From: a virus
Length of the DNA stretch: 64,000 nt
Virus record (IMG/VR): IMGVR_UViG_3300042867_001289
Coordinates: 32,001-96,000 of that record
Reading direction: 5' to 3' (one strand)
Shown: positions 1,421 through 20,143 of the stretch, one piece after another
How positions within the stretch are numbered: the stretch's first letter is position 1
Layout: each line of letters starts with the position of its first letter
Program-made: the position numbers and the translations under genes
The notes under the pieces: generated by a model
Databases searched by the model: none
What the model saw: the letters and a program-made list of their open reading frames with translations, nothing else
Told to the model about the DNA's origin: nothing

Positions 1421-1421
1421 G

Positions 1422-3359: not shown

Positions 3360-3583
3360 CACAAGCCCCGCCCCCAGTCTTACCCCTAAAATCTGACCCC
3401 TTTTGGTGGTTGGTGTGGTGGTTTGAAAGCCCCGTTCACCCCTGTCTGCCCCCTAAACTTTGACCCCTTTTGGTGGTGGTGGGAGCCCCGCCCCCTCTGT
3501 CCGCCCCCAAAATGTGTCCCCTTTTTGGTGGTTGTCGGGGCTGTGGGGTTGGGGAGGCCGTAGCCTCCCTTTCCCCTTTCGGG

Positions 3584-3697
3584 CTAGCGCCGCTCTTTCG
3601 ATTGGCGTGAGGCTTGGCCTCGGCGGTAGCCTCCGTCCCTGACCCCGTTGGGGGCCTCCCGTGCGGCTCGTGCCTCTTTGGCTTGTGCTTTCGTCAT
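3584..3697 (-). CDS. 37-aa basic microprotein (paralog of 7550-7657)
   Basis: MTKAQAKEAR...GGYRRGQASRQSKERR; own promoter, GAGGAG RBS, downstream hairpin. Confidence 0.7.
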   Translation of the reverse strand: MTKAQAKEARAAREAPNGVRDGGYRRGQASRQSKERR

Positions 3698-3749
3698 GCT
3701 GGCTCCTCTGCTAGGTGATGTACTCAATCTAGCCGATGGGCCATACCCT

Positions 3750-3921
3750 TGTCAAGTCAATACGACAAGTTTCTGTGATGCGATTCTAGGCCTGCAATCT
3801 CTTGACGGGTACGAGTACCGCCGACAACCGAGAACGCGCCTAGAACGCTCTTGTGGACGCTCTAGAGCGAACATCCGCCGACTGATTAGCCTCACAAACA
3901 ATCTGCAACAATGACTTGACA
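3750..3921. promoter_or_regulatory. divergent promoter pair, unit 1 (long-spacer type)
   Basis: TGTCAA 3750-3755 and TTGACA 3916-3921 flanking the ~125-bp repeat. Confidence 0.75.
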
Positions 3922-3973
3922 AGGATATGGCCACCATGTAGTCTAAGTACATCACCTAGCGAAGGAGTACGAA

Positions 3974-4129
3974 GTGCACAACAGCCAATTTGACCGGGTC
4001 ATGCCGGGCGGAGGGTCCGACTGGGTCCACGCCGCCAACATGGCGGACGACCTAGCCGATGTCGATCACGACGACGACTACGACGACGACGACTACGACG
4101 AATGGCCGCCACGCCGAGAGGACTGGTGA
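3974..4129 (+). CDS. 51-aa very acidic microprotein
   Basis: GTG start after AAGGAG; ...DDLADVDHDDDYDDDDYDEWPPRREDW. Confidence 0.65.
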   Translation: MHNSQFDRVMPGGGSDWVHAANMADDLADVDHDDDYDDDDYDEWPPRREDW

Positions 4130-4135
4130 GCCACC

Positions 4136-4153
4136 GGGGGCCGAAAGGCCCCC
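4136..4153 (+). terminator. GC hairpin with GNRA loop closing a cassette (representative of family)
   Basis: GGGGGCC-GAAA-GGCCCCC; similar at 5156-5173, 6947-6964, 7664-7681, 8601-8618, 13251-13268; U-tracts often weak. Confidence 0.65.
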
Positions 4154-4395
4154 ACCTTCCCCTTTTTTCCTTTGCGTCCCGCACACCCCAAACCCCCACC
4201 ACCCCAACGGGACCCCCAAACACACCACCCACACCCCTGGAAGCTATCCGAAAAGCACAAGCCCCGGCCCCCAGCCCTTCCCCCCAAACTTGTACCCCTT
4301 TTTGATGATTGGTCGGGGCTGTCGAATCAACGTGAGGTTTGCACTAGCGGGGCCGCGAGGCAAGGGTGGAAGGCTTGCGCCCCCCCCTTGCGGGC

Positions 4396-4572
4396 TTAGC
4401 CCCACAGCCCCCCTTCGTCCTCAGCGCGACCGACATGCTCGGAAACAGCCTCGTCGCAGCAGTCCTCGCAGAGCAGCTCCGGCCCTGCGACGGTGATGTG
4501 CGTCCAAGTGGCGTCTGCGCCGCAGACTTCGCACTCGTGCCACACATCTAGTAGGTGAGTAAAAACGGCCAT
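4396..4572 (-). CDS. 58-aa acidic CxxC..CxxC (zinc-ribbon-like) microprotein
   Basis: MAVFTHLL..CEVCG..LCEDC; RBS AAGGGG, own promoter. Confidence 0.7.
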   Translation of the reverse strand: MAVFTHLLDVWHECEVCGADATWTHITVAGPELLCEDCCDEAVSEHVGRAEDEGGLWG

Positions 4573-4625
4573 TGTTGGCCCCTTTCGGTTGGTGAAACAC
4601 TGACAATACACCCTGCCGCCGAGGC

Positions 4626-4806
4626 TGTCAAGCCAATACGACAAGTTTCTGTGATGCGATTCTAGGCGTGCAATCTCTTGACGGGTACGGATGCACCCGA
4701 GAACCGAGAACGCGCCGGAAACGTCCTTGTGAGCGTCCTGAGAGCAATATCCCCTAGGCGCTCGCAGTCGGTACCCCTGAAATCGGCATGCAGTAATGAC
4801 TTGACA
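4626..4806. promoter_or_regulatory. divergent promoter pair, unit 2 (long-spacer type)
   Basis: TGTCAA 4626-4631, TTGACA 4801-4806, GTTTCACCAAC leaders on both sides. Confidence 0.75.
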
Positions 4807-4859
4807 AGGGGACCGGCACCGTGTACAGTCAATGTTTCACCAACCGAAAGGGGCCGCAC

Positions 4860-5150
4860 ATGTGGCTAATAACTGATCCGTGGAAAGACCTGAACAAAGA
4901 GGGTCTGACCGCTTGGCAAGCGGCCCTGTCAAAGGACGCTTTCGAGAGAGTCGAAAGCGCTTTTAGGCAGGCGGACGGTCTCGGAATTCGCATCTACCGC
5001 GAACATGACGCGACAGACCGGCCAACGTACTATACGGGCCGCGGCAGTTACGAATATTTTGCGGAATTCGACAATTGCTGGATGAGAATCGAACCAGAGC
5101 GTGACGGCCTAGAGTTTAGGCAGAATATCTACGTCCACATGAAAGGTTGA
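4860..5150 (+). CDS. hypothetical protein, 96 aa
   Basis: MWLITDPWK...; RBS, own promoter and hairpin. Confidence 0.7.
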   Translation: MWLITDPWKDLNKEGLTAWQAALSKDAFERVESAFRQADGLGIRIYREHDATDRPTYYTGRGSYEYFAEFDNCWMRIEPERDGLEFRQNIYVHMKG

Positions 5151-5416
5151 GCGAAGGGGGCCGCAAGGCCCCCACACTCGCGCACCCTCGCATGCGTCCC
5201 GCTATGGGAACCAGGCACCTGGAACCAAAGAAACACAAGCCCCGCCCCCCAAACTCACCCCGAACCCTGACCCCCCCCTTCAGGAAAGGCAAGCCCCGTT
5301 CCCCCGAATCTTTCCCCCCAAAGTTTGTCCCCTTTTCTCAATTTCGGGGCTGCCGTGTTGAACGTGGAATCAAGTAGCGGGACGCCCTGAAGGGGGAGCC
5401 TTTCGGCCCCCCTAGC

Positions 5417-5563
5417 TCAGTCCTCCCATCCAAAGCGGGCGAGCCATTCCTCACGCTCACATTGGATCTCAGCTTGGTCATCAAGCTCAGCTTGGATTTC
5501 AGCTGCAAACTCGGTGTCAACCCAGTCTTGCCACTGTTGGGATAGGTTAGCTTCGATGGCCAT
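5417..5563 (-). CDS. 48-aa acidic microprotein
   Basis: MAIEANLSQQWQDWVDTEF...RFGWED; RBS, promoter and hairpin. Confidence 0.65.
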   Translation of the reverse strand: MAIEANLSQQWQDWVDTEFAAEIQAELDDQAEIQCEREEWLARFGWED

Positions 5564-5614
5564 TTCGGCCCCTTTCGTTGGTGAAACACTCAACCTACTG
5601 CATGGCGGTCACCC

Positions 5615-5808
5615 TGTCAAGTCATTAGAACAAATATCTCTGAGGCCGTTCTAGGCCGTTCTAGGCGGTCGATTGTCGGCCCGCTACCGATACCGCCAGA
5701 ATCGACGAACGCGCTCAGAACGCGCTCACAGTGGCCCTAGAACGAATATCCCCTAGACAGTCGGCAGTCGACAGAAAGAATTGAGATATCCCGTCTAATG
5801 GCTTGACA
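5615..5808. promoter_or_regulatory. divergent promoter pair, unit 3 (long-spacer type)
   Basis: TGTCAA 5615-5620, TTGACA 5803-5808. Confidence 0.7.
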
Positions 5809-5864
5809 GACATTCTCCCATAGAGTATCGTCAGTGTTTCACCACAAAGAAAGGGGCCAACAAC

Positions 5865-6056
5865 ATGGCTTCAGAAGATATGGGATGGGCTGTCTGTGAA
5901 GTCTGCGAAAGCGGCACTACAGACTCGGTAGTCATCGACACCGGCGAGGACCTTGCAATAGCGTGCCGGTCATGCTGGTGGGACTACATCGATGTCGAAT
6001 TCATCGATGGAGACCTCGATGCGGAGCGGGAATACCTGCAAGGCAGAGGGTTCTAG
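5865..6056 (+). CDS. 63-aa acidic CxxC..CxxC microprotein
   Basis: CEVCE...CRSCW; RBS AAGGGG. Confidence 0.7.
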   Translation: MASEDMGWAVCEVCESGTTDSVVIDTGEDLAIACRSCWWDYIDVEFIDGDLDAEREYLQGRGF

Positions 6057-6323
6057 GACCAAAGGGGAGTGGGGCGCAAGCCTCACTCCCCAAAGTCGCG
6101 CCCACACTTCTCCGCCCCGCTACGAGAACCCCTGGAACCAAAGAAAAGCAAAGCCCCGGCCCCCCAATCCGCCCCCCAAAGCTGCACCCCTTTGGAAGCC
6201 CCGGCCCCAATCTTCCCCCCAAAAATTTGCACCCCTTTTTGGTGAGTATCGGGGCTTGTGGGTTTTTTGTAGCTGCCCCTTTCGGGACTGCTGGGGTTGG
6301 GGAGGCTTGCGCCCCCCCTTCCC

Positions 6324-6455
6324 TCAGTTCCACGGTGCGTTGCGTTCCGCAACCTCCTCGGCGCTCATCTCGTCCGAGATGTGTTGGTTCTTGACCAACT
6401 CCCACTCGGCCATCAGGATGGCATGAAACCTTGCGTCAACCTCTTCGTCAGACAC
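6324..6455 (-). CDS. 43-aa acidic microprotein ending APWN
   Basis: GTG start after GAGGGG; HISDEMSAEEVAERNAPWN, 3' end shared with 7148-7378. Confidence 0.65.
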   Translation of the reverse strand: MSDEEVDARFHAILMAEWELVKNQHISDEMSAEEVAERNAPWN

Positions 6456-6511
6456 TTAGTGTCCCCTCTCTTTGTGGTGAGTACCTATTATGCACACACC
6501 TTGCCCCATCC

Positions 6512-6684
6512 TGTCAAGTCAATAGAACAAGTTTCTTTGAGGCCGTTCTAGGCGTGCAATCGGGAACCCGCTACAAGTACCGCCGAGAACCGAGAACGCG
6601 CCGGAAACGCGCTTGTGAGCGTTCTGGGCGCAATATCCCCTAGACACTTAGCCTCACAAATAAACCTGCAATAAAGACTTGACA
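6512..6684. promoter_or_regulatory. divergent promoter pair, unit 4 (long-spacer type)
   Basis: TGTCAA 6512-6517, TTGACA 6679-6684 with CATAAT -10 boxes. Confidence 0.75.
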
Positions 6685-6740
6685 AGGTAGGGGAAGGTGT
6701 GCGCATAATAGTGTCTCACCAAGCGACAAGGAGTTGCGCA

Positions 6741-6941
6741 ATGCATAACAACATAACCGCTCTAGCGTTGGCACTGAATCAGTGTGACCGCTGCGAAGAG
6801 TGGGTCCTAGAATCGCTCACTAGCGATTACAGCGGGGACGGGGAAGTGTGCGAGCTTTGCTACGACCAAAGCGTTGAGGACTCGCACGAATGGCAAGCAT
6901 TCTGCGACGACCACAGAAGGGGAGGCTGGACCACGGGATGA
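6741..6941 (+). CDS. 66-aa CxxC..CxxC microprotein (paralog of 12100-12279)
   Basis: LNQCDRCEE...CELC...EWQAFCDDHRRGG. Confidence 0.75.
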   Translation: MHNNITALALALNQCDRCEEWVLESLTSDYSGDGEVCELCYDQSVEDSHEWQAFCDDHRRGGWTTG

Positions 6942-7147
6942 GCAAAGGGGGCCGAAAGGCCCCCAAACCCGCGCACCGCCTTATGCGTCCCGCACCCAGA
7001 CTTCCACCAAAATAATCTCGGGGCTCACAAATATCAAACCCCTGGCGACCCGCTCATCACCAAAGCCCCGGCCCCCCGAAACCGATTTCTGAGACCTCCT
7101 CGGTTTCGGGACTGCGAAACCGGTGGAGGGCCGAAGCCCCCCCTTGC

Positions 7148-7378
7148 TCAGTTCCACGGTGCGGCAGCCTCAGCGGGCGGCAGCATCGCATCGCTAACGT
7201 GCGCACGCCTGCGTCGGGCAAGCTCAGCGGCAAGCTCAGCCGCTTCGACCTGACGAGTGGTCTCGGCAGCCTCAGCCGCCTCAAGCTCGGCAGCCTTGCG
7301 TAGCAAGGCCCTGACCATCACTGCAAGCCCTGCGAAGGCCACTGACCATTGCAGGATGAACGGTATCCAGTCTCTCAT
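7148..7378 (-). CDS. 76-aa protein with N-terminal hydrophobic helix and Ala-rich coil
   Basis: MRDWIPFILQWSVAFAGLAV...HVSDAMLPPAEAAAPWN; AGGAG RBS. Confidence 0.7.
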   Translation of the reverse strand: MRDWIPFILQWSVAFAGLAVMVRALLRKAAELEAAEAAETTRQVEAAELAAELARRRRAHVSDAMLPPAEAAAPWN

Positions 7379-7430
7379 GGTAACTCCTGTCCGTTGGTGA
7401 AACCTCAAAGCTACAGCATGGCCGATACCC

Positions 7431-7494
7431 TGTCAAGTCAATGCTACGGGCAGCCTGAGAACGGTCTCAGCTTCAGCAGTCAACCGATTTGACA
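7431..7494. promoter_or_regulatory. compact divergent promoter pair with central palindrome, unit 5
   Basis: TGTCAA-18bp-CTGAGaacggtCTCAG(7455-7470)-18bp-TTGACA. Confidence 0.8.
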
Positions 7495-7549
7495 GGCCCC
7501 ATTGCATGGTGTAAGGTATACATATCACCAAGAGCAAGGGAGCCAAGCA

Positions 7550-7657
7550 ATGACAAAGTCAGAACGTCGGGAAGCCCGCCACCGCGACCAATCAGTTCGC
7601 TGGGGAGGTGGCTACCGGCGAGATCAAAAGTCTCGCCAGTCGAAAGAACGCCGATAG
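7550..7657 (+). CDS. 35-aa basic microprotein (paralog of 3584-3697)
   Basis: MTKSERREAR...GGYRRDQKSRQSKERR. Confidence 0.7.
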   Translation: MTKSERREARHRDQSVRWGGGYRRDQKSRQSKERR

Positions 7658-7927
7658 CGGCGAGGGGGCCGAAAGGCCCCCACCTTCGCGTACCGCTTTA
7701 CCAGTCCCGCACCCAAACTCGCCCCCAGACCCACCCCCCCCTTTTTTTGTAACCTCGGGGCTCACCTGGCTATCAAAAGAGGGACAAGCCCCGACCCCCA
7801 AACTTTGCCCCCAAAATCTGCGCCCCCTTTTTTGCGAGGTGATCGGTTTCGGGGCTGCAAAATCAACGTGGAGTTGGACCAGCGGGGCCAACGGGAAGGG
7901 GGAGGCCGAAGCCCCCCCCTTTTCCGG

Positions 7928-8119
7928 CTACCACCATTTGGTGGGGTCGGTACCCAGTGGGTACCATGTGACCTCCGCAAACGGGATGGTGCCGCTAGAA
8001 CCGTCATCCGACCACACAACCGGTACTCCGATTGTTGGGTCGTCCAGATTGGTGATGAAGGCCGTAAGGCCGATCCTTCCCGACCTGTCGGCTACCTCTG
8101 TGTCGTTTCGGATGTGCAT
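7928..8119 (-). CDS. hypothetical protein, 63 aa
   Basis: MHIRNDTEV...; GAGGAG RBS, own promoter and hairpin. Confidence 0.7.
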   Translation of the reverse strand: MHIRNDTEVADRSGRIGLTAFITNLDDPTIGVPVVWSDDGSSGTIPFAEVTWYPLGTDPTKWW

Positions 8120-8173
8120 GACTAACTCCTCATTGCTTGGTGAAACACTGAACTTACACCCTAGGGCCGAGGC

Positions 8174-8356
8174 TGTCAAGTCAATACAACAAGTTTCTGT
8201 GATGCGATTCTAGGCGTACAACCCCTTGACGGGTGCTAGCACCGCCAGAATCCGTAAACGTGCCTAGAACGCGCTCACAATGGCCCTAGCGGCAATACCC
8301 CCTAGACACTCGGCATCCTAGGCGGTCGGCAGTCGGCATGAAATAAAGACTTGACA
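8174..8356. promoter_or_regulatory. divergent promoter pair, unit 6 (long-spacer type)
   Basis: TGTCAA 8174-8179, TTGACA 8351-8356. Confidence 0.75.
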
Positions 8357-8411
8357 AGGGTATGGGCAGGGTGTAAGGTAAGTACATCACCAAGCAGAGA
8401 GGGACCCGCAC

Positions 8412-8594
8412 ATGTGGGAAGTAATCAAGCACGCCCGTATCGAATGCCACGACTGTCAGTGCATGACAACCGTTGCCGATATGGGAACCATCTACCTAGG
8501 CTACACCTTCGAACTCGGCGGAGAGGAAATACAAGCCACCGCCTTCGCATGCAAGTCATGCCAATGGGACCGCTGGGAAGTGGAGTACGACTGA
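8412..8594 (+). CDS. 60-aa CxxC..CxxC microprotein
   Basis: CHDCQ...CKSCQ; RBS and hairpin. Confidence 0.7.
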   Translation: MWEVIKHARIECHDCQCMTTVADMGTIYLGYTFELGGEEIQATAFACKSCQWDRWEVEYD

Positions 8595-8783
8595 GACAAC
8601 GGGGGCCGAAAGGCCCCCACAGTCGCGCCCGCACTCGCATGCGTCCCGCACCCTGGAACCAGGAACAAAACAAACAACAGCCCCGCCCCCCAGTCTCACC
8701 CCAAAACCCTGGCCCCTTTTCAGAAATCTCGGGGCTCACAAACATTGTCATTCCACGCCCCAGCGGGACCCGGAAGGGGAGGG

Positions 8784-8876
8784 TCAGTCCTTCCACTTCC
8801 TGACCCACCGCTCGTTCCAGAGTGCCAGCGCACCCATACTCACTGCCCATCCTGTAGCTATTGCTAGGTATGTCAT
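8784..8876 (-). CDS. 30-aa hydrophobic microprotein
   Basis: MTYLAIATGWAVSMGALALWNERWVRKWKD; own TTGACA-17-TACAAT promoter and AGGAG. Confidence 0.6.
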   Translation of the reverse strand: MTYLAIATGWAVSMGALALWNERWVRKWKD

Positions 8877-8973
8877 TGCTTGGCTCCTGTTCCTTGGTGA
8901 AACACTATTGTACCATACACCTTGCACCTTGTCAAGTCGAAAGGCGAGTGACCGTAGCCACCCGCCTAACAAC

Positions 8974-9183
8974 TCACTCAGCTAACGCCGGTTCTCCCGA
9001 CATTTTTCGCATAACCGCTGTCAGCCGCTCGTATGCGTCGATCAACTCTAGCCCCTGCTCCGGGCTGTAGTTCACGTTGCTCCCGTCCTGTAGCTGCACT
9101 GCCATAAGCTCAGTCGCTTCGATAATAAGCTCCGAAGCTCTGAAGCACTTCTGGAGTGCCGTCCAGTCTTTCTTCTGGTCCAT
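8974..9183 (-). CDS. hypothetical protein, 69 aa
   Basis: MDQKKDW...; cassette leader and RBS. Confidence 0.65.
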   Translation of the reverse strand: MDQKKDWTALQKCFRASELIIEATELMAVQLQDGSNVNYSPEQGLELIDAYERLTAVMRKMSGEPALAE

Positions 9184-9234
9184 GATGACCTTTCTTTGTA
9201 GGTGAAACACTATTCTTGCACACTGCAGGGCACA

Positions 9235-9297
9235 ATGCAAATCGTGCTACAGGCAACCTGAGAGGCCCCTCAGACAACCCGCACGGTGGAATTGACA
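9235..9297. promoter_or_regulatory. compact divergent promoter pair, unit 7
   Basis: ATGCAA-17bp-CTGAGaggcccCTCAG(9258-9273)-18bp-TTGACA. Confidence 0.75.
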
Positions 9298-9349
9298 AAC
9301 TGCACCCTACATGCAATACTAGTGTTTCACCAACCAGCAAGGAGCCACA

Positions 9350-9469
9350 ATGGACAACGACAATTCAGACAATGACGACCTCACCACCTCAGAGATCGAA
9401 GAGATGTTACTCGTCATTGAAATGTTCAAAGAAATCGAAGCGGGAACCCCACCCGCACGAACCGAGTAA
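9350..9469 (+). CDS. 39-aa acidic microprotein
   Basis: MDNDNSDNDDLTTSEIEEMLL...; AAGGAG RBS. Confidence 0.6.
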   Translation: MDNDNSDNDDLTTSEIEEMLLVIEMFKEIEAGTPPARTE

Positions 9470-9473
9470 CAGA

Positions 9474-9499
9474 AAGGGCCACCCGCAAGGGTGGCCCTT
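9474..9499. terminator. hairpin between convergent genes
   Basis: AAGGGCCACCC-GCAA-GGGTGGCCCTT. Confidence 0.7.
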
Positions 9500-9518
9500 C
9501 TGCCCATCCACGGGACTA

Positions 9519-9779
9519 TCAGATAGTAACAACATTCCCAGGCGGGACTAACGCAACACGATGAGTCTCAACCCAACGCTCACCAGTCCCGGCAACAGGA
9601 GTCACCAACAGGTCAAGATGCCCGAAGCGAAGCCGTGCCTCGACAACGTTGACAGAAATCTGCAGGTCTTCCATCTTCATGACGCCTGACATGCCCCGCA
9701 AGGCTGCGATGTCTTCGGCGGTGATCTTCTTGTTATCGCCGTGTTCGTCCCGGGTTGAAAAGATTGTTCTTGTTGACAT
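9519..9779 (-). CDS. hypothetical protein, 86 aa
   Basis: MSTRTIFST...RFGHLDLLVTPVAGTGERWV; AGGAG RBS, TTGACA at 9831-9836. Confidence 0.7.
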   Translation of the reverse strand: MSTRTIFSTRDEHGDNKKITAEDIAALRGMSGVMKMEDLQISVNVVEARLRFGHLDLLVTPVAGTGERWVETHRVALVPPGNVVTI

Positions 9780-9909
9780 TTGTTCTCCTAATAGTTGGTA
9801 GGTCTGTACCTTACAGGGTGTTGGTGGCTGTGTCAAATCGGTGGTATCGAACTTGGGATCAGCTGTCGGGACTGCGGAGAGAGGGAGGGCTTTCGCCCCC
9901 CCCTCAGGG

Positions 9910-10074
9910 TCACTCTGAGCGGAACCCCTCTTCTTGCGAGATTTCACATCGCCAGTCCCAGATCAGGCGCTCTTTCTCAAGCTTGGCGGCTCTCGTCATC
10001 TCGTCGATGCGATCCTGCCACTCTTGGTATCCTCCCTGAACCCACAGGGCCGACAGTTCTAGTTCGTTTAGCAT
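9910..10074 (-). CDS. 54-aa microprotein
   Basis: MLNELELSALWVQGGY...EEGFRSE; GAGGAGG RBS. Confidence 0.65.
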   Translation of the reverse strand: MLNELELSALWVQGGYQEWQDRIDEMTRAAKLEKERLIWDWRCEISQEEGFRSE

Positions 10075-13639: not shown

Positions 13640-13704
13640 GTTTGTTCTTTCTGTTAGGTGATGAGTGTAAGTGTACACCCTAGGTGATGTCTTGTCAAGT
13701 TGTT

Positions 13705-13855
13705 GCGGGTCGCGCCCCTATGCCTAGGAACACAACCCGCCTACCGTACCGTCAAGCCCTGCAAATAGGCTCAAGAGGCTATAAAGCAATATAGACTCGA
13801 TTAGTACGAACCCCTCACTATTGCTTTGCACACAAACGGTGAGGTAACAACGAAC
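13705..13855 (-). ncRNA. candidate small structured RNA in the left slot of unit 12
   Basis: Cassette-type promoter but no RBS and no ORF >18 aa; ends in 16-bp stem with several G-U pairs and GGCA loop. Confidence 0.4.
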
Positions 13856-13881
13856 ACTATTATTGCACACTATAGGCCACA

Positions 13882-13944
13882 ACGCAAATCACGCTACAAG
13901 CAACCTGAGAGAGTTCTTAGACAACTCACGCAGTGGAGTTGACA
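13882..13944. promoter_or_regulatory. compact divergent promoter pair, unit 12
   Basis: ACGCAA-17bp-CTGAGagagttCTTAG(13905-13920)-18bp-TTGACA. Confidence 0.7.
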
Positions 13945-13996
13945 GACTGCAAGGTGTATGGCATACTAGTGTTTCACCAACGAACAGGAGAAACAA

Positions 13997-14233
13997 ATGA
14001 TAGACATCAAAATTTGCTCAGACTGCGCAATGTGGGTAGCCAACCTCGATGACTCAGCAGTCGACAATGACGACAGAGGCAACGAGTACCGCCAACGCCG
14101 TGACGAAGGCCTAGAGTCCTTCAGCGGCTGCGTTGTGGTCAATATGGACGACGACGGCTACGGCTTCACTCATAACGGCTGCGACATATGCGGCCAGACT
14201 GGTCACCACGGCATCAGCGCCACAGTGTTCTGA
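13997..14233 (+). CDS. 78-aa CxxC..CxxC protein
   Basis: ICSDC...GCDICG; AGGAG RBS. Confidence 0.75.
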   Translation: MIDIKICSDCAMWVANLDDSAVDNDDRGNEYRQRRDEGLESFSGCVVVNMDDDGYGFTHNGCDICGQTGHHGISATVF

Positions 14234-14403
14234 GAGAACGGGAGAGGGGCGAAAGCCTCCCTCCCACTTTCTCGCGCCCACGGGACCCCCGCCACCCCCG
14301 ACAACCGGCACGCCCCGCACACAACAAAAGTCAAGTCCACTCAACAAAAGTCAAGCAACGGGGCCAGCAAGCTGGGGAAGGCCGTAGCCCTCCCCTTGCT
14401 CAC

Positions 14404-14691
14404 TCACCAGCCTCTCACGACTATCGAACCGTCACCGACTTCGACGACCGTTGTGTTGTGTCCTAGTTCTTCTAGGCTGTCGATCTCGTGGCCGGTGTCT
14501 TCAACGTACTCCTCAAAAGAGTCGTAGACGGCATAATCGCAGCGAAAACCAATGGGATCTAGTTCGATCCCTGGCTCATCAGCGAAGGTGTCTTCTAGGT
14601 AGTTGAAGAAGGCCACCGCTGCGTTGTAGGGCCAGTCAGCGAATTGCCGCATGGCTTGAGCGAAGTCTGATTCTGAAACTGTCTGATACAT
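14404..14691 (-). CDS. 95-aa acidic protein, ELDPI family copy 1
   Basis: MYQTVSESDFAQ...ELDPIGFRCDY...EVGDGSIVV. Confidence 0.8.
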   Translation of the reverse strand: MYQTVSESDFAQAMRQFADWPYNAAVAFFNYLEDTFADEPGIELDPIGFRCDYAVYDSFEEYVEDTGHEIDSLEELGHNTTVVEVGDGSIVVRGW

Positions 14692-14744
14692 GTTGACTCT
14701 TTCTGTTAGGTGATAGGTACAACTATATAGGCTAGGTTGCTTGC

Positions 14745-14808
14745 CGTCAAATTGACTATAAGAGTTTCCTGAGAGCCGACTCAGCCTCACTCTAGCTACC
14801 GCTTGACA
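14745..14808. promoter_or_regulatory. compact divergent promoter pair, unit 13
   Basis: CGTCAA-18bp-CTGAGagccgaCTCAG(14769-14784)-18bp-TTGACA. Confidence 0.8.
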
Positions 14809-14858
14809 AGGTGCAACCTACATGGCATAATAGAGTTTCACCAACAAGGGAGCCACCA

Positions 14859-14978
14859 ATGAATGCAAATTTGATCAACATCGACTGGGTAAACCAGTTC
14901 AGCGCAGTTCAACAGTTCGGAGCAGGACTAATCATAGCGTCCACAATCCTCTCAATCGACTGGCTAAGAAAGCGGTAA
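14859..14978 (+). CDS. 39-aa microprotein, possibly membrane-associated
   Basis: MNANLINIDWVNQF...IDWLRKR; GGGAG RBS and hairpin. Confidence 0.55.
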   Translation: MNANLINIDWVNQFSAVQQFGAGLIIASTILSIDWLRKR

Positions 14979-15170
14979 CCGGAAGGGGGCGCAAGCCCTC
15001 TGTTCCCGCACGCCCCGCCACCCCAAACCCCTGGTCTCAGCAACGGGGCTCACCCACATCTTCCAGATAGCCACCTCACACATTTCAGGTAGCTACGTCC
15101 CGCCCGGATTGTTTGAACCTGGGCTATCGGGGCTGACGAAGCGGGAGAGGCCGAAGCCCCTCCCAGTCGC

Positions 15171-15479
15171 TCACCATTCTTGGACGACGATTGAACCGTC
15201 TCCAACCTCTAGAACTAGGGTGTGTTCTGCTAGTTCTTCGATGTTGGCGACGTTGTCGTGGCCGTAGTCGCTCTTGTAAGCGTCGAAACTAGCGTGGACA
15301 CTGTAGGCACACCGGAAGGCGATGGGGTCTAGTTCGACCCCTGTGTCACCTTGACCGTAGCCAACTTCCCCGGCTACCTCTTCGATGTAGTCGAAGAGTA
15401 CAACCGAGGCGCTATAGGGCCAGTCTGCGAATTCTCGCATGACTTGGGCAAAGTCTGATTCTGTTACGTTCTGGTACAT
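15171..15479 (-). CDS. 102-aa acidic protein, ELDPI family copy 2
   Basis: MYQNVTESDFAQ...ELDPIAFRCAY...EVGDGSIVV. Confidence 0.8.
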   Translation of the reverse strand: MYQNVTESDFAQVMREFADWPYSASVVLFDYIEEVAGEVGYGQGDTGVELDPIAFRCAYSVHASFDAYKSDYGHDNVANIEELAEHTLVLEVGDGSIVVQEW

Positions 15480-15532
15480 GTTGGCTCTTTCTGTTAGGTG
15501 ATAAGTGCAACTATACTTGACAGGTGCCACCC

Positions 15533-15652
15533 TGTCAAATTTAGGTGCATGAAACCTGAAGCCTTTCTCAGTTTGTTCTCTGTTCGTGACCTCCGAAACA
15601 GAGAACAGATTAGCTAAGAGCGTTCTCAGCTAGCCGACACGAAGACTTGACG
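15533..15652. promoter_or_regulatory. divergent promoter pair, unit 14, with two palindromes and an inserted hairpin
   Basis: Palindromes 15556-15571 and 15614-15629, each 17 bp from its -35. Confidence 0.7.
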
Positions 15653-15702
15653 CCTTGCACCCTATAAGCTACAATGATGTTTCACCTAACGAAAGGCAAA
15701 CA

Positions 15703-15918
15703 ATGAACCTAGACAAAGAAATATGGGAAGGGTGGACAGTCGCCGACTACGTCGGAGAACTTGAACCACTATTTGACATGATCATGAGCAACGGATCATG
15801 GCAGAAACCCTTCACCTCAAAGGCGCAAGTCAAAGAATGGTGCATGGACAACCAGCCCGGATACAAAAAGAACATCCCAGACGTCGTCAACTACCTCTGG
15901 GGGAAAACCTGCAACTAG
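15703..15918 (+). CDS. hypothetical protein, 71 aa
   Basis: MNLDKEIWEGWTV...NQPGYKKNIPDVVNY. Confidence 0.75.
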   Translation: MNLDKEIWEGWTVADYVGELEPLFDMIMSNGSWQKPFTSKAQVKEWCMDNQPGYKKNIPDVVNYLWGKTCN

Positions 15919-16149
15919 CAGGCGGGGGCCGCAAGGCCCCCACCTTCTTACGCCCACGGGACTCACACCCCAAGCGACAAACACGACAGCCCCGCCGAAA
16001 CATTCGGACAGGGCTTACTGCGGGACTCATGGTGAAATGAGGGAGCAGGTGGGGAGGCTCACCACAACCGTCCCCACCGCTTCACCTCGTTAGCAGGCTA
16101 TCACCTCGAAGAGGTCTTGTGTGACTTCTCCTGGTAGCCCCGCTAAGGC

Positions 16150-16422
16150 TTAGATGTTATTCTCTTCCTCGCAAAGGGTTACTAAAATGGCATCTTCGTC
16201 TGCCTTTTCGTAGTATCCCATAATGTCTATGCCACCTGAGTCGATGAATCCTGTTTCCTCGATCCATGCAGGTGCTTCATATCTAAGACTTTCCCAGCGA
16301 TAACCGGTGCTGCGGGCTGCCTCTTCGATCCAAAGGACCATCTGGGAAACAGCATCTTCTGGGTTGGCTGCATCAAACTTACATGACACGCTTACTGTGT
16401 ATTCTTCAAGTTCTTCGTTCAT
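16150..16422 (-). CDS. acidic hypothetical protein, 90 aa
   Basis: Own TTGACA-17-TACAAT promoter, AAGGAG RBS. Confidence 0.7.
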   Translation of the reverse strand: MNEELEEYTVSVSCKFDAANPEDAVSQMVLWIEEAARSTGYRWESLRYEAPAWIEETGFIDSGGIDIMGYYEKADEDAILVTLCEEENNI

Positions 16423-16499
16423 CGTGTGGCTCCTTGTGTTGGTTGGTGTGTAATCATTGTAGCAGGCACCTGACAGCTTGTCAAGTACCTGCTACGGAA

Positions 16500-16706
16500 T
16501 TACTTCCTTCTCTCAGCAAGCTCGTCACGAACGGCTGCCCAATTTTCCTGAGCTTCACGAACGGCTGCACGCTCAGCATCGACGATGTCCTGAGCGTTCC
16601 TGATACGAACGTAGGACGCTTCGATACGACGCTCTAAAACGCCTTCAGTGTATTCCAGCTCATCGGTTGTAGAATCTGCAATTCTACTCTCAAAGAATGT
16701 ACTCAT
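16500..16706 (-). CDS. coiled-coil hypothetical protein, 68 aa
   Basis: Cassette promoter and leader. Confidence 0.7.
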   Translation of the reverse strand: MSTFFESRIADSTTDELEYTEGVLERRIEASYVRIRNAQDIVDAERAAVREAQENWAAVRDELAERRK

Positions 16707-16760
16707 TGTTTCTTCTCTCTGCTAGGTGGTAGGTGTAACTATACACGGCACCCGCCTACC

Positions 16761-16822
16761 AGTCAAATCGACGTACTCGCATCCTGAGAAATCGCTCAGA
16801 TTCTCAAGCAGTGGAGTTGACA
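16761..16822. promoter_or_regulatory. compact divergent promoter pair, unit 15
   Basis: AGTCAA-17bp-CTGAGaaatcgCTCAG(16784-16799)-17bp-TTGACA. Confidence 0.78.
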
Positions 16823-16874
16823 GCTTGCACATTGCATGGCATACTAGTGTTTCACCTAGCAGAGAGAAGAAACA

Positions 16875-17165
16875 ATGTACCAACTAGTTGGAGAATCCGA
16901 CTTCGCACAATCCATGAGAACCTACGCAGGCTGGTCATACTCAGCCTCATGCGCGTTCTTCTGGTTCATGGAAGATAACGACAGCACAATCGACGGCTTC
17001 GGGATCGAACTTGATCCCATCGGCCTACGATGCGAGTTCAGCGTCTACGCAGACTTTGACGCTTACGCAGAGTGCTATCCATCTATGGCCACGCTGGACG
17101 ACCTGAGGGAGAGCACCCTAGTCATCGAAGCAGATGACGGCTCTCTGGTCGTGCAAGACATCTAA
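16875..17165 (+). CDS. 96-aa acidic protein, ELDPI family copy 3
   Basis: MYQLVGESDFAQ...ELDPIGLRCEF...EADDGSLVV. Confidence 0.8.
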   Translation: MYQLVGESDFAQSMRTYAGWSYSASCAFFWFMEDNDSTIDGFGIELDPIGLRCEFSVYADFDAYAECYPSMATLDDLRESTLVIEADDGSLVVQDI

Positions 17166-17274
17166 GCGATTAGGGGACAGGCTCCGGCTTGTCCCCTTTT
17201 CTGCTGTAAAGACTTGACAAGCAGTGTACAACCATGTACAATAAGAACCATCACCTAGCAGAAAGAAGCAAACA

Positions 17275-17553
17275 ATGGCAATCACCATTAGCAGTAACGG
17301 ATACAGTGTCGGCGACCAAGTCGGCGACTCCCTAGCCTTCCTAGAACAATTCTGGCCAGCACTAGCAAAGCCAATCCTACTCAACCTGCCAGCATACGAC
17401 CCCGAACTACCGGGCTACGATGACGAAGCACTTGACTGGATCATCGCAGACATCGAAGCGACCGACAAGGTTCGCTGGATCGAAGGCGAACCATGGGGAG
17501 TAATCCCAGCCGGGAACCTCGAATACCGACTCTGGAACTGGGAAGAGGAGTGA
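17275..17553 (+). CDS. acidic hypothetical protein, 92 aa
   Basis: Own TTGACA..TACAAT promoter near 17214. Confidence 0.7.
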   Translation: MAITISSNGYSVGDQVGDSLAFLEQFWPALAKPILLNLPAYDPELPGYDDEALDWIIADIEATDKVRWIEGEPWGVIPAGNLEYRLWNWEEE

Positions 17554-17691
17554 GGTGAGGGGCTCCGGCCCTTCCCCCAGTCCCGCTACCCGTTTTCCTG
17601 AACAACCAGGGCGGGGCTAAGCACGCTTTTGCACGCTTTTTGTGGGTACATATGCAGAACCGTGCCCAAATAGGCACGGTTCTGCTACCGA

Positions 17692-17904
17692 TTAGCTGTC
17701 GGCGATAGGTGCCGGTGTAGTGCTAATTGTCTGGTACTTGGATGGGGCGACGCGAACGTCGTTAGCTACGGATAGGACATCCCAGCCAAGTTGCTCGTCT
17801 AGCGTCTCAGCAGCGATCTTGATGGCTACAGCATCGTCGTCGCAGGTTGCCCAAGTCTCAAGGATGAAGTCATCCCCGTAGAAGGTTACTGTCTTGTTTT
17901 CCAT
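17692..17904 (-). CDS. hypothetical protein, 70 aa
   Basis: Cassette promoter and RBS. Confidence 0.7.
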   Translation of the reverse strand: MENKTVTFYGDDFILETWATCDDDAVAIKIAAETLDEQLGWDVLSVANDVRVAPSKYQTISTTPAPIADS

Positions 17905-17958
17905 GTTGGCTCTTTCCTGTTAGGTGGTAGTTGTAACTATACTAGCTAGGCAACCTGC

Positions 17959-18020
17959 TGTCAACCTTTACTACAGACAAGCTGTGAGCGTTCTCAGCAT
18001 TCATGACGCAAGACTTGACA
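17959..18020. promoter_or_regulatory. compact divergent promoter pair, unit 16
   Basis: TGTCAA-17bp-CTGTGagcgttCTCAG(17982-17997)-17bp-TTGACA. Confidence 0.78.
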
Positions 18021-18072
18021 CTGTGGCCTGCAGGGTATAAGGTAGTGTTTCACCAACCAATAAGGAGCCACG

Positions 18073-18258
18073 ATGGCAAAGCAGAAGAAAACCAAACAAT
18101 CCACACGAACAGCCGAGATCGTTCTCGCAATCCGCACCCAAGCACATGAGCAGTACGTCGACGCACTTCGCGACGGTCGCCGCCAACGTGCCGCAACCTA
18201 CCCAGACCGCCGCAAGGTGGCAAACAAGAAGGCTTGTCGCAGGTCAGCATACAGCTGA
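18073..18258 (+). CDS. 61-aa basic protein
   Basis: K/R-rich, DRRKVANKKACR; AAGGAG RBS. Confidence 0.7.
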   Translation: MAKQKKTKQSTRTAEIVLAIRTQAHEQYVDALRDGRRQRAATYPDRRKVANKKACRRSAYS

Positions 18259-18426
18259 CCTAGCGGCTAAGCCGCTTGCACCAGTCCCGCCTGGGCCACC
18301 AGGGATCTAGGCTGCCGGGGCTAAAAGCTTTTTGCTTCTCTGACCATCGGGGCTAAGGAGCAATTTTTGGTCCCTGGCTATCGGGGCTAAAGGCGCAGGA
18401 GGGGCCGAAGCCCCCCCCACAACCTG

Positions 18427-18756
18427 TTAGCCATATACCACCTCAGTGAAGCAGGCCACCTGAACAATCAGGTCTGCAAGGTCTGCGTCGATGTCGCCAG
18501 CCTCGTTCTCACGAACAGCAACAGCGATCTTATTGACGACCACGGGGTGGATGCCGCTAGTGTCTCCACCGATAATCTGCTCAATCGCTTCCTGCACGTC
18601 CGTTGGCGTGATTGGGTAGCGTTGGCCATCTTCCATGTCGTGGAAAGTGGCGTGAGTGTTCTCATCGGCGTGCGAGTAATCGTCCACTTCCGCCCAGTAG
18701 TTACTGCCACCTTCGGCGGCTGTGACGATGATGTCGGATAGGAATTGTGTGTCCAT
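18427..18756 (-). CDS. conserved phage hypothetical protein, 109 aa
   Basis: AAEGGSNYWA...IDADLADLIVQVACF.EVVYG motif pattern recalled from phage hypotheticals. Confidence 0.8.
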   Translation of the reverse strand: MDTQFLSDIIVTAAEGGSNYWAEVDDYSHADENTHATFHDMEDGQRYPITPTDVQEAIEQIIGGDTSGIHPVVVNKIAVAVRENEAGDIDADLADLIVQVACFTEVVYG

Positions 18757-18812
18757 TGCTTGGCTCCTTGTGTTGGTTGGTATGTAGTCATTGTAGGGTA
18801 TAGAACGTATCC

Positions 18813-18875
18813 TGTCAAGCCTTGTCACAGGAAGCCTGATAACGCTCTCAGAATGCCTGACACATATACTTGACA
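18813..18875. promoter_or_regulatory. compact divergent promoter pair, unit 17
   Basis: TGTCAA-17bp-CTGATaacgctCTCAG(18836-18851)-18bp-TTGACA. Confidence 0.78.
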
Positions 18876-18926
18876 AGATGCTTTAGGTAAAGTACTATGA
18901 GTACACATCAACGAACAAGGAGCCAC

Positions 18927-19253
18927 ATGAGATCCCTACAAGACCTACTAAAATTGTTACGAGGCCTACCAGAGGTCGCAAACCTGCAAGATGCATTCAC
19001 GTTGCTAGACCGTTCTATCGTAACGATAACGGAATACGAACAGCTTGAAAGCGAATGTAGACGCAGAGCCAGAGAACTCAAGTTCTGTCTTGACTCCCTC
19101 GGAATCAAATACGAATCCGCCTGGGGAGAACATCACTCTTGGTCAGTCTACCTAGCCACCAACGACTGCACCGTGAAAGGTGCACCCCTAACAGGACCAG
19201 TCATCGCAGACTGCCGAGCATCCCAGCTAATGACAAGCTTCAGTCGAATCTAG
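18927..19253 (+). CDS. hypothetical protein, 108 aa
   Basis: MRSLQDLL...; AAGGAG RBS. Confidence 0.7.
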   Translation: MRSLQDLLKLLRGLPEVANLQDAFTLLDRSIVTITEYEQLESECRRRARELKFCLDSLGIKYESAWGEHHSWSVYLATNDCTVKGAPLTGPVIADCRASQLMTSFSRI

Positions 19254-19397
19254 CGAGGGTCCGTCCGAAAGGGCGGGCTCTTCACCAGCCCCGGACGCCC
19301 AATGCTGTAGCGGGACTATCGTATGCCCTGGTCGCACGATGAGGCTGGCAGGCCCCGCTTCGGGCGGGGAGGCTTGGGGGCCGAAGCCCCCGTTGCC

Positions 19398-19610
19398 TTA
19401 CCAGCCGACACCTTGTCGCCCTGCCGCTATGCGATCCTCGTAGATCTCGTGGATGCTCATGATCCAGTCAAACGCTTCTGCGATGTCACGAGCGTCTTTG
19501 CAGTGTTCCCAGACTTGTTCGTCTTCCCAGCACTCGTCGATGACTGAGCAGCTTCCGCTGCCGATGATCTGGTTTCCTCGGATGAATTTGATTAGCTCTT
19601 GCTTGTCCAT
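19398..19610 (-). CDS. hypothetical protein, 70 aa
   Basis: IG.GSCSVIDECW motif; GAGG RBS. Confidence 0.7.
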   Translation of the reverse strand: MDKQELIKFIRGNQIIGSGSCSVIDECWEDEQVWEHCKDARDIAEAFDWIMSIHEIYEDRIAAGRQGVGW

Positions 19611-19665
19611 TGCTTTCCTCTTTCTTGTAGGTGATAGGTGTAACTGTACATGGTAACGGCCTGCC

Positions 19666-19727
19666 AGTCAAATCGTTGCACAAGAACCCTGTGGACGCTA
19701 TCAGGTTTCCGAGCAGTGGGGTTGACA
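19666..19727. promoter_or_regulatory. compact divergent promoter pair, unit 18
   Basis: AGTCAA-17bp-CTGTGgacgctATCAG(19689-19704)-17bp-TTGACA. Confidence 0.72.
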
Positions 19728-19780
19728 CAGTGTAGCTTGTATGGCATAATAAATAGACATCAACCAACAGGAGCTAAACA

Positions 19781-20143
19781 ATGAGAATCAACGACACATG
19801 GCGAGACGTAAACTCGGGAACGGTAATCGACCGCATTGCCGAACTGGGAGCGATCAGTCTTGCCGACGCAGATGAGAACGACTCAATCGAACTGGCAGAA
19901 CTACAGAATCTCGATCAACAAGGACGCGAGATTGTGGGCTGGGCCGAAGGCTACGTCATGCTAATCAAGGACGGCTACATGGAAGACCACGCTCAAGAGC
20001 GAGCAGAAGAAGAGGGCAAAATTAGCTTCAACGAGTGGCCAGCAACGGCCATTGACTGGCATCAAGCAGCAGAAGAACTCAAGTTCTCCTACGGCTACAT
20101 CCCAGTCGACTTTTTCAACAGCACCTACTGGGTCGTCAAGTAA
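19781..20143 (+). CDS. acidic protein resembling ArdA antirestriction C-terminal region
   Basis: YMEDHAQERAEE...WP..AIDWHQAAEELK..Y..VDF...YW; function inferred. Confidence 0.5.
   Translation: MRINDTWRDVNSGTVIDRIAELGAISLADADENDSIELAELQNLDQQGREIVGWAEGYVMLIKDGYMEDHAQERAEEEGKISFNEWPATAIDWHQAAEELKFSYGYIPVDFFNSTYWVVK

Follow-up and report, generated by a model that had tools for sequence, protein, structure and literature searches.

Back-to-back promoter cassettes with hexamer-marked spacers in the probable early region of an uncultivated lake phage

Uncultivated phages of actinobacteria abound in lakes. A 64,000-base window of viral DNA (bases 32001-96000 of the 128,048-base IMG/VR virus record IMGVR_UViG_3300042867_001289) raises the question what a regular array of back-to-back promoter cassettes with small, mostly dissimilar genes is and how it came about. 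The array occupies positions 3360-20143 of the window, to which all coordinates refer unless another record is named, and comprises 18 divergent two-gene units and six single cassettes with 41 small genes. The record belongs to the linear class, is rated 87% complete and shows no end repeats over its 128,048 bases; it comes from lake water and probably represents a tailed phage of ~128 kb, not cultivated so far, that appears to be lytic. We consider it probable that the array is the immediate-early region of a lytic actinobacterial lake phage, in which cassettes are read by the host polymerase, one operator serves two promoters, the spacers are bound at a short hexamer, and the genes evolve slot by slot through homologous recombination.

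The array was surveyed by a repeat search, a promoter profile search (profile built from 11 promoter copies) and site-by-site inspection. The 18 divergent pairs are spaced 801-1199 bp from centre to centre, in agreement with the 18 units ~0.8-1.2 kb apart given in a preliminary description of this DNA, and the mirrored anatomy that it assigned to a unit, namely hairpin, open reading frame (ORF), ribosome-binding site, leader and promoter, was confirmed. Both slots carry an ORF in 17 of the 18 pairs; the minus promoter at 13888 has none. The genes code for 30-120 amino acids; each is preceded by a promoter of its own and a stereotyped leader that includes a ribosome site, and each ends in a GC-rich hairpin.

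The promoter module consists of CTTGACA, a 17-bp spacer, TAnnnT, frequently with TGn in front of it, then a short leader, AAGGAG and the start codon. By its consensus it is sigma-70/SigA-like, and ~55 stereotyped copies were found in total. A consensus scan of 3360-20143 gave 38 promoter-like sites, compared to 7.1 ± 2.4 in shuffled sequences, and in a profile search of the 128-kb record at E ≤ 10, 47 of the 50 matches fell at window 3.7-28.3 kb, the other three having E values above 3. In 40 of 40 genes, the start codon follows the -35 box at 56-66 nt. Three classes of leader box were distinguished, GTTTCACCAAC, ATCACCTAAC-like and ACATACCAAC-like, each of which occurs on both strands, and the two partners of unit 15 share an identical 25-nt leader. 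The leader box GTGTTTCAC (e.g., 9322-9334 and 10096-10108) resembles one half of the bacterial parS palindrome. In gene 10477-10707 the ATG lies, unlike in the other cassettes, 7 nt past the -10 box of the promoter at 10743 (10715-10748, minus strand), which makes its mRNA a candidate for a leaderless one.

No more than 48 nt from its stop codon, each of the 41 genes has a hairpin whose minimum free energy is ≤ -12 kcal/mol (mean -23.7, compared to -13.9 in shuffles). The stems are GC-rich and the loops mostly GAAA, GCAA, UUCG or UACG. As few of these hairpins are followed by a T-run, a scan for classical terminators was barely enriched (28 versus 16.1 ± 4.7 in shuffles); terminators without U tracts are common in actinobacteria. 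The non-coding parts resemble each other more than the genes do: mean ungapped pairwise identity was 42% for promoters and 44% for leaders versus 29% for the first 60 nt of the coding sequences (780 pairs each). Among the 55 called proteins, nine pairs matched at E ≤ 0.01, forming five small groups in the array and one outside it, and the ORFs are therefore mostly non-homologous. Both halves of the earlier statement that the scaffold is homologous and the ORFs mostly are not thus stand.

These features suggest the following scheme. Host RNA polymerase with the primary sigma factor would fire from the ~55 near-consensus promoters (TTGACA, 17 bp, TAnnnT, many with TGn), and each would yield a leader of probably ~25-30 nt with a conserved box and an AAGGAG ribosome site. 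Each leader would serve one monocistronic gene of 30-120 amino acids that ends at a GC-rich tetraloop hairpin, mostly without a U tract. In the pairs with a short centre, one dimeric regulator on a palindrome would control both promoters, and oriented, helix-phased GYCCCG sites would bind a protein specific to the phage family that insulates the units or marks the early domain. Ordinary homologous recombination between scaffold repeats would cause genes to be replaced, duplicated, inverted and lost slot by slot.

Two kinds of centre separate the paired promoters. In the five pairs of class A, 160-183 bp lie between the first bases of the two -35 boxes, and the centres are 76-81% alike between units (repeat family D3 and others); by eye, they contain repeated CTAGAACG- and GAGAACG-like words in both orientations. 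These pairs are unit 1 (3584-4129; -35 boxes 3755/3915) with a basic 37-amino-acid gene at 3584-3697(-) and an acidic 51-amino-acid gene at 3974-4129(+), unit 2 (4396-5150; boxes 4631/4801; genes 4396-4572(-) and 4860-5150(+)), unit 3 (5417-6056; boxes 5620/5803; genes 5417-5563(-) and 5865-6056(+)), unit 4 (6324-6941; boxes 6519/6679; genes 6324-6455(-) and 6741-6941(+)) and unit 6 (7928-8594; boxes 8179/8350; genes 7928-8119(-) and 8412-8594(+)).

The other 13 pairs are of a short type with ~47-109 bp between the first bases of the -35 boxes, and 12 of them have the palindrome CTGAGA-N4-TCTCAG between these boxes, at 16-18 bp from either one. Eleven of them form class B. Unit 5 (7148-7657; boxes 7440/7487) carries genes 7148-7378(-) and 7550-7657(+) and a perfect palindrome at 7455-7470. 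Also of this class are unit 7 (8974-9469; boxes 9240/9292; genes 8974-9183(-) and 9350-9469(+); palindrome 9258-9273), unit 8 (9910-10414; boxes 10135/10187; genes 9910-10074(-) and 10244-10414(+); palindrome 10153-10168), unit 9 (10803-11401; boxes 11079/11132; genes 10803-11021(-) and 11189-11401(+); palindrome 11098-11113), unit 10 (11654-12279; boxes 11990/12042; genes 11654-11932(-) and 12100-12279(+); palindrome 12009-12024) and unit 11 (12427-13086; boxes 12817/12868; genes 12427-12759(-) and 12925-13086(+); palindrome 12835-12850). Unit 12 (13853-14233) has the empty slot behind the minus promoter at 13888, a plus promoter at 13939 with gene 13997-14233, and a palindrome with one mismatch at 13905-13920. 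Further class B pairs are unit 13 (14404-14978; boxes 14750/14803; genes 14404-14691(-) and 14859-14978(+); palindrome 14769-14784), unit 15 (16500-17165; boxes 16766/16817; genes 16500-16706(-) and 16875-17165(+); palindrome 16784-16799), unit 16 (17692-18258; boxes 17964/18015; genes 17692-17904(-) and 18073-18258(+); one-mismatch palindrome at 17982) and unit 17 (18427-19253; boxes 18818/18870; genes 18427-18756(-), which matches phrog_2355, and 18927-19253(+); one-mismatch palindrome at 18836). Unit 14 (15171-15918; boxes 15538/15647; genes 15171-15479(-) and 15703-15918(+)) has two one-mismatch palindromes, at 15556 and 15614, and unit 18 (19398-20143; boxes 19671/19722; genes 19398-19610(-) and 19781-20143(+), the latter a weak ArdA-like lead) has no palindrome within one mismatch.

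The record contains nine perfect copies of the palindrome, compared to ~0.12 expected by arithmetic, and 12 with one mismatch; 19 of these 21 copies lie at window 7.4-27.8 kb. Its centre is ~61 bases upstream of both presumed start points, counted from the -35 box, and because of this equal distance we infer that a single dimeric regulator could control both promoters of a pair. In the tandem part described below, the palindrome extends over the stop codon of the gene before it, for example in C-TAA-GAACCTTCTCAG.

The intercalated single cassettes are precisely the six that had been listed before. Five are on the minus strand: 8784-8940 (gene 8784-8876, 30 amino acids; -35 box 8935), 9519-9850 (gene 9519-9779; box 9845), which has four GYCCCG sites in its coding DNA and a homologue in the relative G002 introduced below, 10477-10748 (gene 10477-10707; box 10743), also with four internal GYCCCG sites, 13424-13703 (gene 13424-13639; box 13698) and 16150-16489 (gene 16150-16422; box 16484), whose leader is of the tandem type, reversed. 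The sixth, 17209-17553 (gene 17275-17553; box 17214), is on the plus strand. Beyond the array the same promoter grammar continues in tandem on the plus strand over 20163-29702, with 13 promoters at 20163, 21346, 21926, 23352, 23914, 24626, 25586, 26169, 26509, 27159, 27906, 28222 and 29315, so that the continuation previously noted to 28.7 kb reaches slightly further.

An array of near-identical repeats could in principle have been produced by mis-joining during assembly. Logan contigs do break at long-type units (3762-4097, 4072-4663 and 4638-5094), and the contig of the closest relative ends inside unit 1. A 20,338-nt Logan contig from run X1, which may be the source sample, nevertheless covers window 5299-22500 with 0 differences, contigs from run X7, a different sample, are collinear and identical across most of the region, and among the 24 runs listed as containing the stretch, all of them lake-water metagenomes, six contain all sampled words and a seventh a fraction of 0.99. 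An artefact is hardly credible, and the assembly of the array is sound. A loose contig end at 9352, considered as a possible recombinant, was rejected: it continues as the start of the gene at 24684 and is probably a local match of a shared leader, since the compared stretch had stopped at 22500.

If the array is real, how did its slots acquire such different genes? The most direct observation comes from the closest relative, a 97.5-kb contig (G001) with 83-93% DNA identity that ends inside unit 1. There, 525 nt replace 353 nt of the window between flanks of ~83% DNA identity; on the right, the break falls within the central element. Centre and plus gene are retained (80% DNA and 78% amino acid identity). 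The minus slot of this relative holds an unrelated 52-amino-acid zinc-ribbon-like ORF, whose best match in the array of the window has an E value of 0.2, and the promoter of this slot is 79% like that of the window's unit 2. Paralogous cargo genes occur in both orientations and behind different promoter and leader subtypes. In the trio 14404-14691(-), 15171-15479(-) and 16875-17165(+), the two members in minus slots follow one promoter type and the member in the plus slot follows the other, with the join near the transcription start. Further paralogues are 3584-3697(-) with 7550-7657(+), 6741-6941 with 12100-12279, 3974-4129 with 12925-13086, and 5865-6056 with 8412-8594 and, weakly, with 4396-4572(-).

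The same data bear on a simpler history, in which one bidirectional unit was tandemly duplicated, the ORFs drifted, the regulatory parts were kept by selection, and cargo was never exchanged. Like scaffolds do adjoin, long-type centres lying at 3.7-8.3 kb and short-type centres at 7.4-19.7 kb, and the paralogues 14404-14691 and 15171-15479 sit in the same slot of adjacent units. Drift alone does not readily account for cargo types that are unlike each other, for the third paralogue reversed behind the other promoter type, for an unrelated ORF beside a conserved neighbour in G001, or for the homologues that some cargo proteins have in unrelated phages of Streptomyces, Achromobacter and Microcystis. 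We regard duplication and divergence without exchange as quite unlikely.

Several results weigh against an immediate-early array of regulated, hexamer-insulated cassettes that exchange genes slot by slot. The comparison of slots is that of one slot in one relative. A complete, 137-kb relative with terminal repeats (G002; ~45-53% protein identity) lacks the promoter array, and so do other distant relatives (~44-53% amino acid identity) found through the primase-helicase and its 340-amino-acid neighbour protein. Other records did not yield the array in a megablast search or in searches with four scaffold patterns and a cargo family: megablast of the array against 50,697 phage records gave no match, the promoter-leader pattern gave two chance matches in IMG/VR and nine, without homology to the window, in JGI metagenome contigs, the operator-plus-two-promoters pattern gave 0 matches, the long-centre pattern found the G001 contig only, and a search of IMG/VR with the aligned cargo trio of paralogues detected no relative. 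Neither joints nor inversions nor circles were seen in the contigs, the only material compared, of four lake runs (X1, X7, X8 and X9), which are collinear, indicating that near-identical strains keep the order; a second relative, 94-96% identical, is likewise collinear across 26.2-34.9 kb. None of seven recombinase and recombination families was found in the whole 128-kb record, which is rated 87% complete. The runs listed as containing the stretch include no RNA run, so that promoter use and timing rest on the consensus. Near-consensus promoters need no activator, and a site near -61 is outside the core promoter, so that any regulation could be of either sign. Finally, the primase-helicase gene (30458-32164) contains 14 GYCCCG sites in all three reading frames and in mixed orientation, and a pure insulator role of the hexamer is therefore insufficient.

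A library of cassettes reshuffled by recombination between scaffold repeats had been proposed before. The slot replacement in G001, the paralogues in both orientations and the empty slot support exchange as such; ongoing or programmed shuffling is not supported, as no joints occurred in contigs of the four runs and no recombinase was found. In its programmed form, scaffold sites would be substrates of a dedicated recombinase, in the manner of integrons or shufflons, and would generate a diversity library within one phage population. Inverted hexamers in the spacers, with nine convergent pairs at exactly 32 bp, and three leader classes on both strands would suit such a device. The tyrosine recombinase profile PF00589, which matched all control genomes, had no match in the 128-kb record, and no integrase or serine recombinase (resolvase) was found there either, in line with the earlier failure to see an integrase or recombinase in the window. 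Moreover, the hexamer also fills the coding DNA of replication genes and is spread without cassettes in G002, and each cassette has its own promoter, unlike integron cassettes. We consider programmed shuffling very unlikely. Exchange at the scaffold over evolutionary time by general recombination is partly supported by these comparisons, and nothing in them points to a programmed system.

A distant relative (L032, positions 1100-2700; ~51% amino acid identity, GC 64%) carries a promoter repeat of its own, CTTGAC with a conserved GTCCGACCCC in the spacer and TATAGT. At least five copies, in both orientations, occur in 1.6 kb and may form a minor counterpart of the array that uses another scaffold.

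What, then, lies between the units? The preliminary description had mentioned a motif-rich spacer, and the motif proved to be the hexamer GYCCCG. Its field (GYCCCG/CGGGRC, both strands, 3365-33175) contains all 125 copies of the record; 35-40 copies would be expected at 3365-33170, so that the word is about threefold enriched there, and the remaining 98,208 bases of the record contain 0 copies versus 40-70 expected. When the rest of the genome was scanned blindly for words that are too rare, the two hexamers were the sole ones without any copy that are not palindromes; six palindromes also had none, and these are missing from the array and early region as well. None of the single-base variants of GYCCCG was depleted. 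Within the array, 66 of the 76 sites fall in 3,578 bp of convergent spacers and eight in genes 9519-9779 and 10477-10707, and the other 39 array genes contain none versus roughly 10 expected at the background rate of the domain.

The sites are ordered with respect to the genes and to each other. An A precedes the hexamer in 52 of the 76 array sites, giving a core of 6-7 bp (A-GYCCCG). The first site of a spacer is in plus orientation in 12 of 16 cases and the last in minus orientation in 13 of 16, and the sites thus tend to face incoming transcription; 27 of 41 genes have a sense-oriented copy no more than 75 nt from the stop codon. The spacing of neighbouring sites has maxima at 31-34 bp (27 pairs), 42-43 bp and 51-54 bp, i.e., at multiples of ~10.6 bp, and nine convergent GYCCCG/CGGGRC pairs are exactly 32 bp apart from start to start (26 nt between). 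Rho-type C-rich sites were rejected as the meaning of the spacers, as the C-richness is on one strand and the genes converge from both sides. A literature search on GYCCCG or divergent early promoter arrays returned nothing relevant, supplements being outside its scope.

Some spacers also contain C-rich repeats of ~45 nt (AAGCCCCGnCCCCC...CCCCC.AAA...CCCCTTTT; families D4, D7 and D8), one to three per spacer, which are confined to the first eight spacers and to 11.5 kb (3361-8727 and 11519-11562). Each repeat shows four G-runs on its opposite strand, which makes four-stranded DNA structures conceivable. A G/T-rich stretch in the tandem part, 23041-23330, resembles these repeats of 3.4-8.7 kb in reversed form; it has six GYCCCG-type sites, one in plus and five in minus orientation, the latter 34-55 bp apart. 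The listed ORF 22957-23322 overlaps it and may not be genuine along all of its length.

The split distribution of the hexamer recurs in relatives. In the G001 contig a single site lies in the first 95 kb, as opposed to 12 in the final 2.5 kb. In G002, 93 sites lie at 100-137 kb and four in the first kilobase, and seven at 5-100 kb, where 82-130 would be expected; its field holds homologues of the window's early and replication genes, with sites ~150-300 bp apart and without cassettes. A third relative (L008; 44% identical primase) has seven GYCCCG-type sites in its first 400 bases (1-420), which are non-coding, 12 in the first 5 kb and one in the next 16 kb, some of them extended as TAGCCCCGTAG. 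Restriction by the host as the sole cause of the avoidance was rejected, since G002 avoids the hexamer and differs in most of the avoided palindromes. Because G002 shares the split of the hexamer and yet tolerates most palindromes avoided by the present phage, we infer that the hexamer is read by something that the phage lineage carries and not by one host's restriction enzyme. Its retention in relatives whose other avoided sites differ would point to a DNA-reading protein specific to the lineage.

Palindromic hexamers show a separate pattern of avoidance. CGTACG, TACGTA, CGGCCG, GCCGGC, GGCGCC and TCCGGA occur 0 times in the whole 128-kb record, compared to 10-35 expected, probably as a result of restriction avoidance. 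Among nine palindromes tested, G002 is without GCCGGC and GGATCC only, and this difference in palindrome avoidance suggests different host enzymes.

Why would a word be kept in one part of a genome and purged from the other? One answer is that the 30-kb field enters the cell and works first, as in the first-step transfer of phage T5, with the hexamers as protein-bound stop or boundary signals and the array as pre-early genes, a scheme compatible with an immediate-early array of host-read cassettes. The field is sharply bounded and conserved in relatives, and G002, with its terminal repeats, has it at one genome end including the first kilobase. The observed-to-expected ratio of 6-bp palindromes is 0.74 in the domain (0.66 in the array alone) versus 0.84-0.95 in size-matched windows elsewhere; this extra depletion of restriction sites is modest. 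Moreover, the present record is of the linear class and shows no end repeats that would place its physical ends, and the field makes up 23% of the genome and includes replication genes. Early DNA of T5 is without sites that late DNA tolerates, and for GYCCCG this rule runs in the opposite direction. We think transfer in this manner unlikely.

A second, doubtful candidate is that A-GYCCCG marks a 30-kb early domain in a family of freshwater actinobacterial phages and is read by a phage-encoded protein, the word having been purged from the other phage DNA and from the cargo genes. Phased sites behind the hairpins would then be roadblocks that let ~40 strong back-to-back promoters fire without read-through, and the same pair of word and reader would serve to distinguish early and late DNA, be it for shut-off or for entry in steps. 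The marking of an early domain would be a sequence-coded counterpart of the discrimination that T4 makes between cytosine DNA and its own modified DNA. Readers are to be sought in this tentative proposal among genes near the right edge of the field: two DNA-binding candidates with weak ribbon-helix-helix-type matches (32412-33104 and 33265-33615), a MarR-type protein (36454-36915) and a candidate regulator with an HA domain and a sigma-70 region 4 helix-turn-helix (28844-29260, minus strand), which is conserved in G002 and is the sole minus-strand gene in the tandem part. A WhiB gene (34019-34375, minus strand) is a further DNA-binding candidate at the same edge. All right-edge DNA-binding candidates have homologues in G002.

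The preliminary description had recognised no precedent for the architecture; this has to be corrected. Arbiol et al. (2010, PMC2839356) and Comeau et al. (2014, PMC4122927) describe promoter-early stem-loops (PeSLs) as composites of a stem-loop, a sigma-70-like early promoter and a ribosome site, with ~50 per genome in plastic regions of T4-type phages, and report that recombination between them swaps genes and forms mini-circles. The present array is a variant of such early cassettes. It shares with them dozens of strong and nearly identical early promoters of the host type, which stand together with stem-loops and ribosome sites before small genes of unknown function in one plastic region. 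Gene replacement by recombination between elements may be a further parallel, to judge from the one case of G001 unit 1; the repeated sigma-70-like early promoter motif is present at the sequence level. In both, the genes mostly have no known homologues, with three weak Pfam matches and seven PHROG families among the 41 proteins here. At four of eight tandem junctions examined (20143/20163, 23891/23914, 25556/25586 and 26488/26509) the hairpin encloses the -35 box, an arrangement that forms one PeSL subclass in the part of PMC2839356 dealing with it.

The differences are as follows. The present phage is probably an actinobacterial one, with WhiB genes, and would belong to another host clade and phage type; its 17-kb array pairs the promoters back to back at a shared palindrome; the array hairpins (41 of 41) stand at the far, convergent ends of the genes and are not fused to the next promoter; and the spacers contain an oriented hexamer of which the rest of the genome has no copy. 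The array is therefore an early-cassette type already known from PeSLs, in which the back-to-back pairing, the shared palindrome and the hexamer spacers are new, and the domain-limited hexamer is its most unusual component. If slot-wise exchange proves true, the PeSL principle, by which regulatory repeats act as seams where genes are exchanged, would not be confined to T4-type phages with Gram-negative hosts and would operate in actinobacterial phages too, as a bidirectional version.

Other systems match in single traits. Cluster O mycobacteriophages, in the account of Cresawn et al. (2015, PMC4351075) as far as it covers promoters and repeats, have eight to nine strongly predicted SigA-like promoters including one divergent pair and a 17-bp palindrome found more than 30 times in or near intergenic DNA. 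They resemble the present phage as actinobacterial phages with SigA-like promoters and an invariant short palindrome repeated many times; they differ, within that account, by the number of promoters (eight to nine versus ~55 here), by the lack of a periodic cassette array, and by a palindrome, TGTTCGG-N3-CCGAACA, that occurs genome-wide and is not fixed between promoter pairs. Integrons also array small unrelated genes separated by repeats with inverted core motifs. Here, however, an IntI-type tyrosine recombinase (PF00589) was not found in the record, each gene has its own promoter, the genes lie on both strands, and the repeats were not attC-like by the tests made.

In the terminal repeat of the Bacillus phage SPO1, the host-takeover module packs numerous small early genes, whose function is unknown, into short operons that have strong promoters of the host type and strong ribosome sites; it has far fewer promoters and is not known to have a regular back-to-back unit, a shared operator or a domain-limited hexamer. 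Stoperators of Cluster A mycobacteriophages (e.g., L5) are 13-14 bp long, occur genome-wide and are recognised by the immunity repressor of a temperate phage. Like them, GYCCCG is a short asymmetric site with many copies near gene ends and, in the array spacers, an orientation bias with respect to transcription, and this analogy suggests that the oriented copies may act as a protein roadblock. In contrast to stoperators, A-GYCCCG has 6-7 bp, is limited to 30 kb and is dense inside some genes too, and neither an integrase was found nor a repressor seen in the record.

The cargo of the array consists of tiny proteins. Among the 40 called ones the median length is 69.5 amino acids; 29 have an isoelectric point below 5 and four above 9, and six contain two CxxC motifs, so that double-CxxC, very acidic and very basic types and one membrane-like 30-mer can be distinguished. 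Pfam gave three weak single-member matches for the 41 proteins, and PHROGs gave seven families, six of unknown function and one a weak match to 'anti-restriction protein'. The latter concerns 19781-20143 (E = 0.0018), whose structure neighbours in the Atlas are automatically named ArdA-like. The homologue search found three close relatives only, the AlphaFold2 model built on a three-row alignment had a mean predicted local distance difference test (pLDDT) score of 52, too poor for a structure search, and comparison of the profile with PDB sequences gave chance-level matches only (E of 0.36 and above). As neither model nor PDB sequences helped, the ArdA-like assignment stays a lead. Their small size, acidity and position make a role of the cargo proteins in host takeover or anti-defence plausible, and 41 tiny, mostly very acidic proteins would be an obvious set to screen for inhibitors that target host proteins or defence systems. 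The region also offers a set of parts for reporters in actinobacteria: ~55 natural promoters that are graded, leaders of three types, 41 hairpins that mostly have no U tract, a palindromic operator and the hexamer.

A GAC-repeat (Asp-rich) at 4068-4101 in gene 3974-4129 draws hundreds of unrelated contigs and causes a false depth spike at 3835-4501. In the tandem part, 20224-20736 and 23412-23891 code for paralogous proteins with a DUF1281_C (Api92-like, ferredoxin-like) domain, 24684-25556 for a GP88-family protein and 26570-27022 for a protein with a YodL-like motif.

The host of the phage is probably an actinobacterium, because the record has four WhiB genes and the nearest cultured phages by primase-helicase (28-31% identity) infect Arthrobacter, Gordonia and Microbacterium. 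The WhiB genes and the actinophage-like primase-helicase point to a phage group other than T4-type myoviruses. Tail fibre-like proteins, which are late genes, are encoded at 42-64 kb. A scan for Rfam families found tRNA only: a tRNA-Met gene (anticodon CAT; 1421-1495, minus strand) lies immediately upstream of the gene for the 340-amino-acid phrog_1221 protein, and the promoter of the latter, at 1420, has a leader unlike those of the array.

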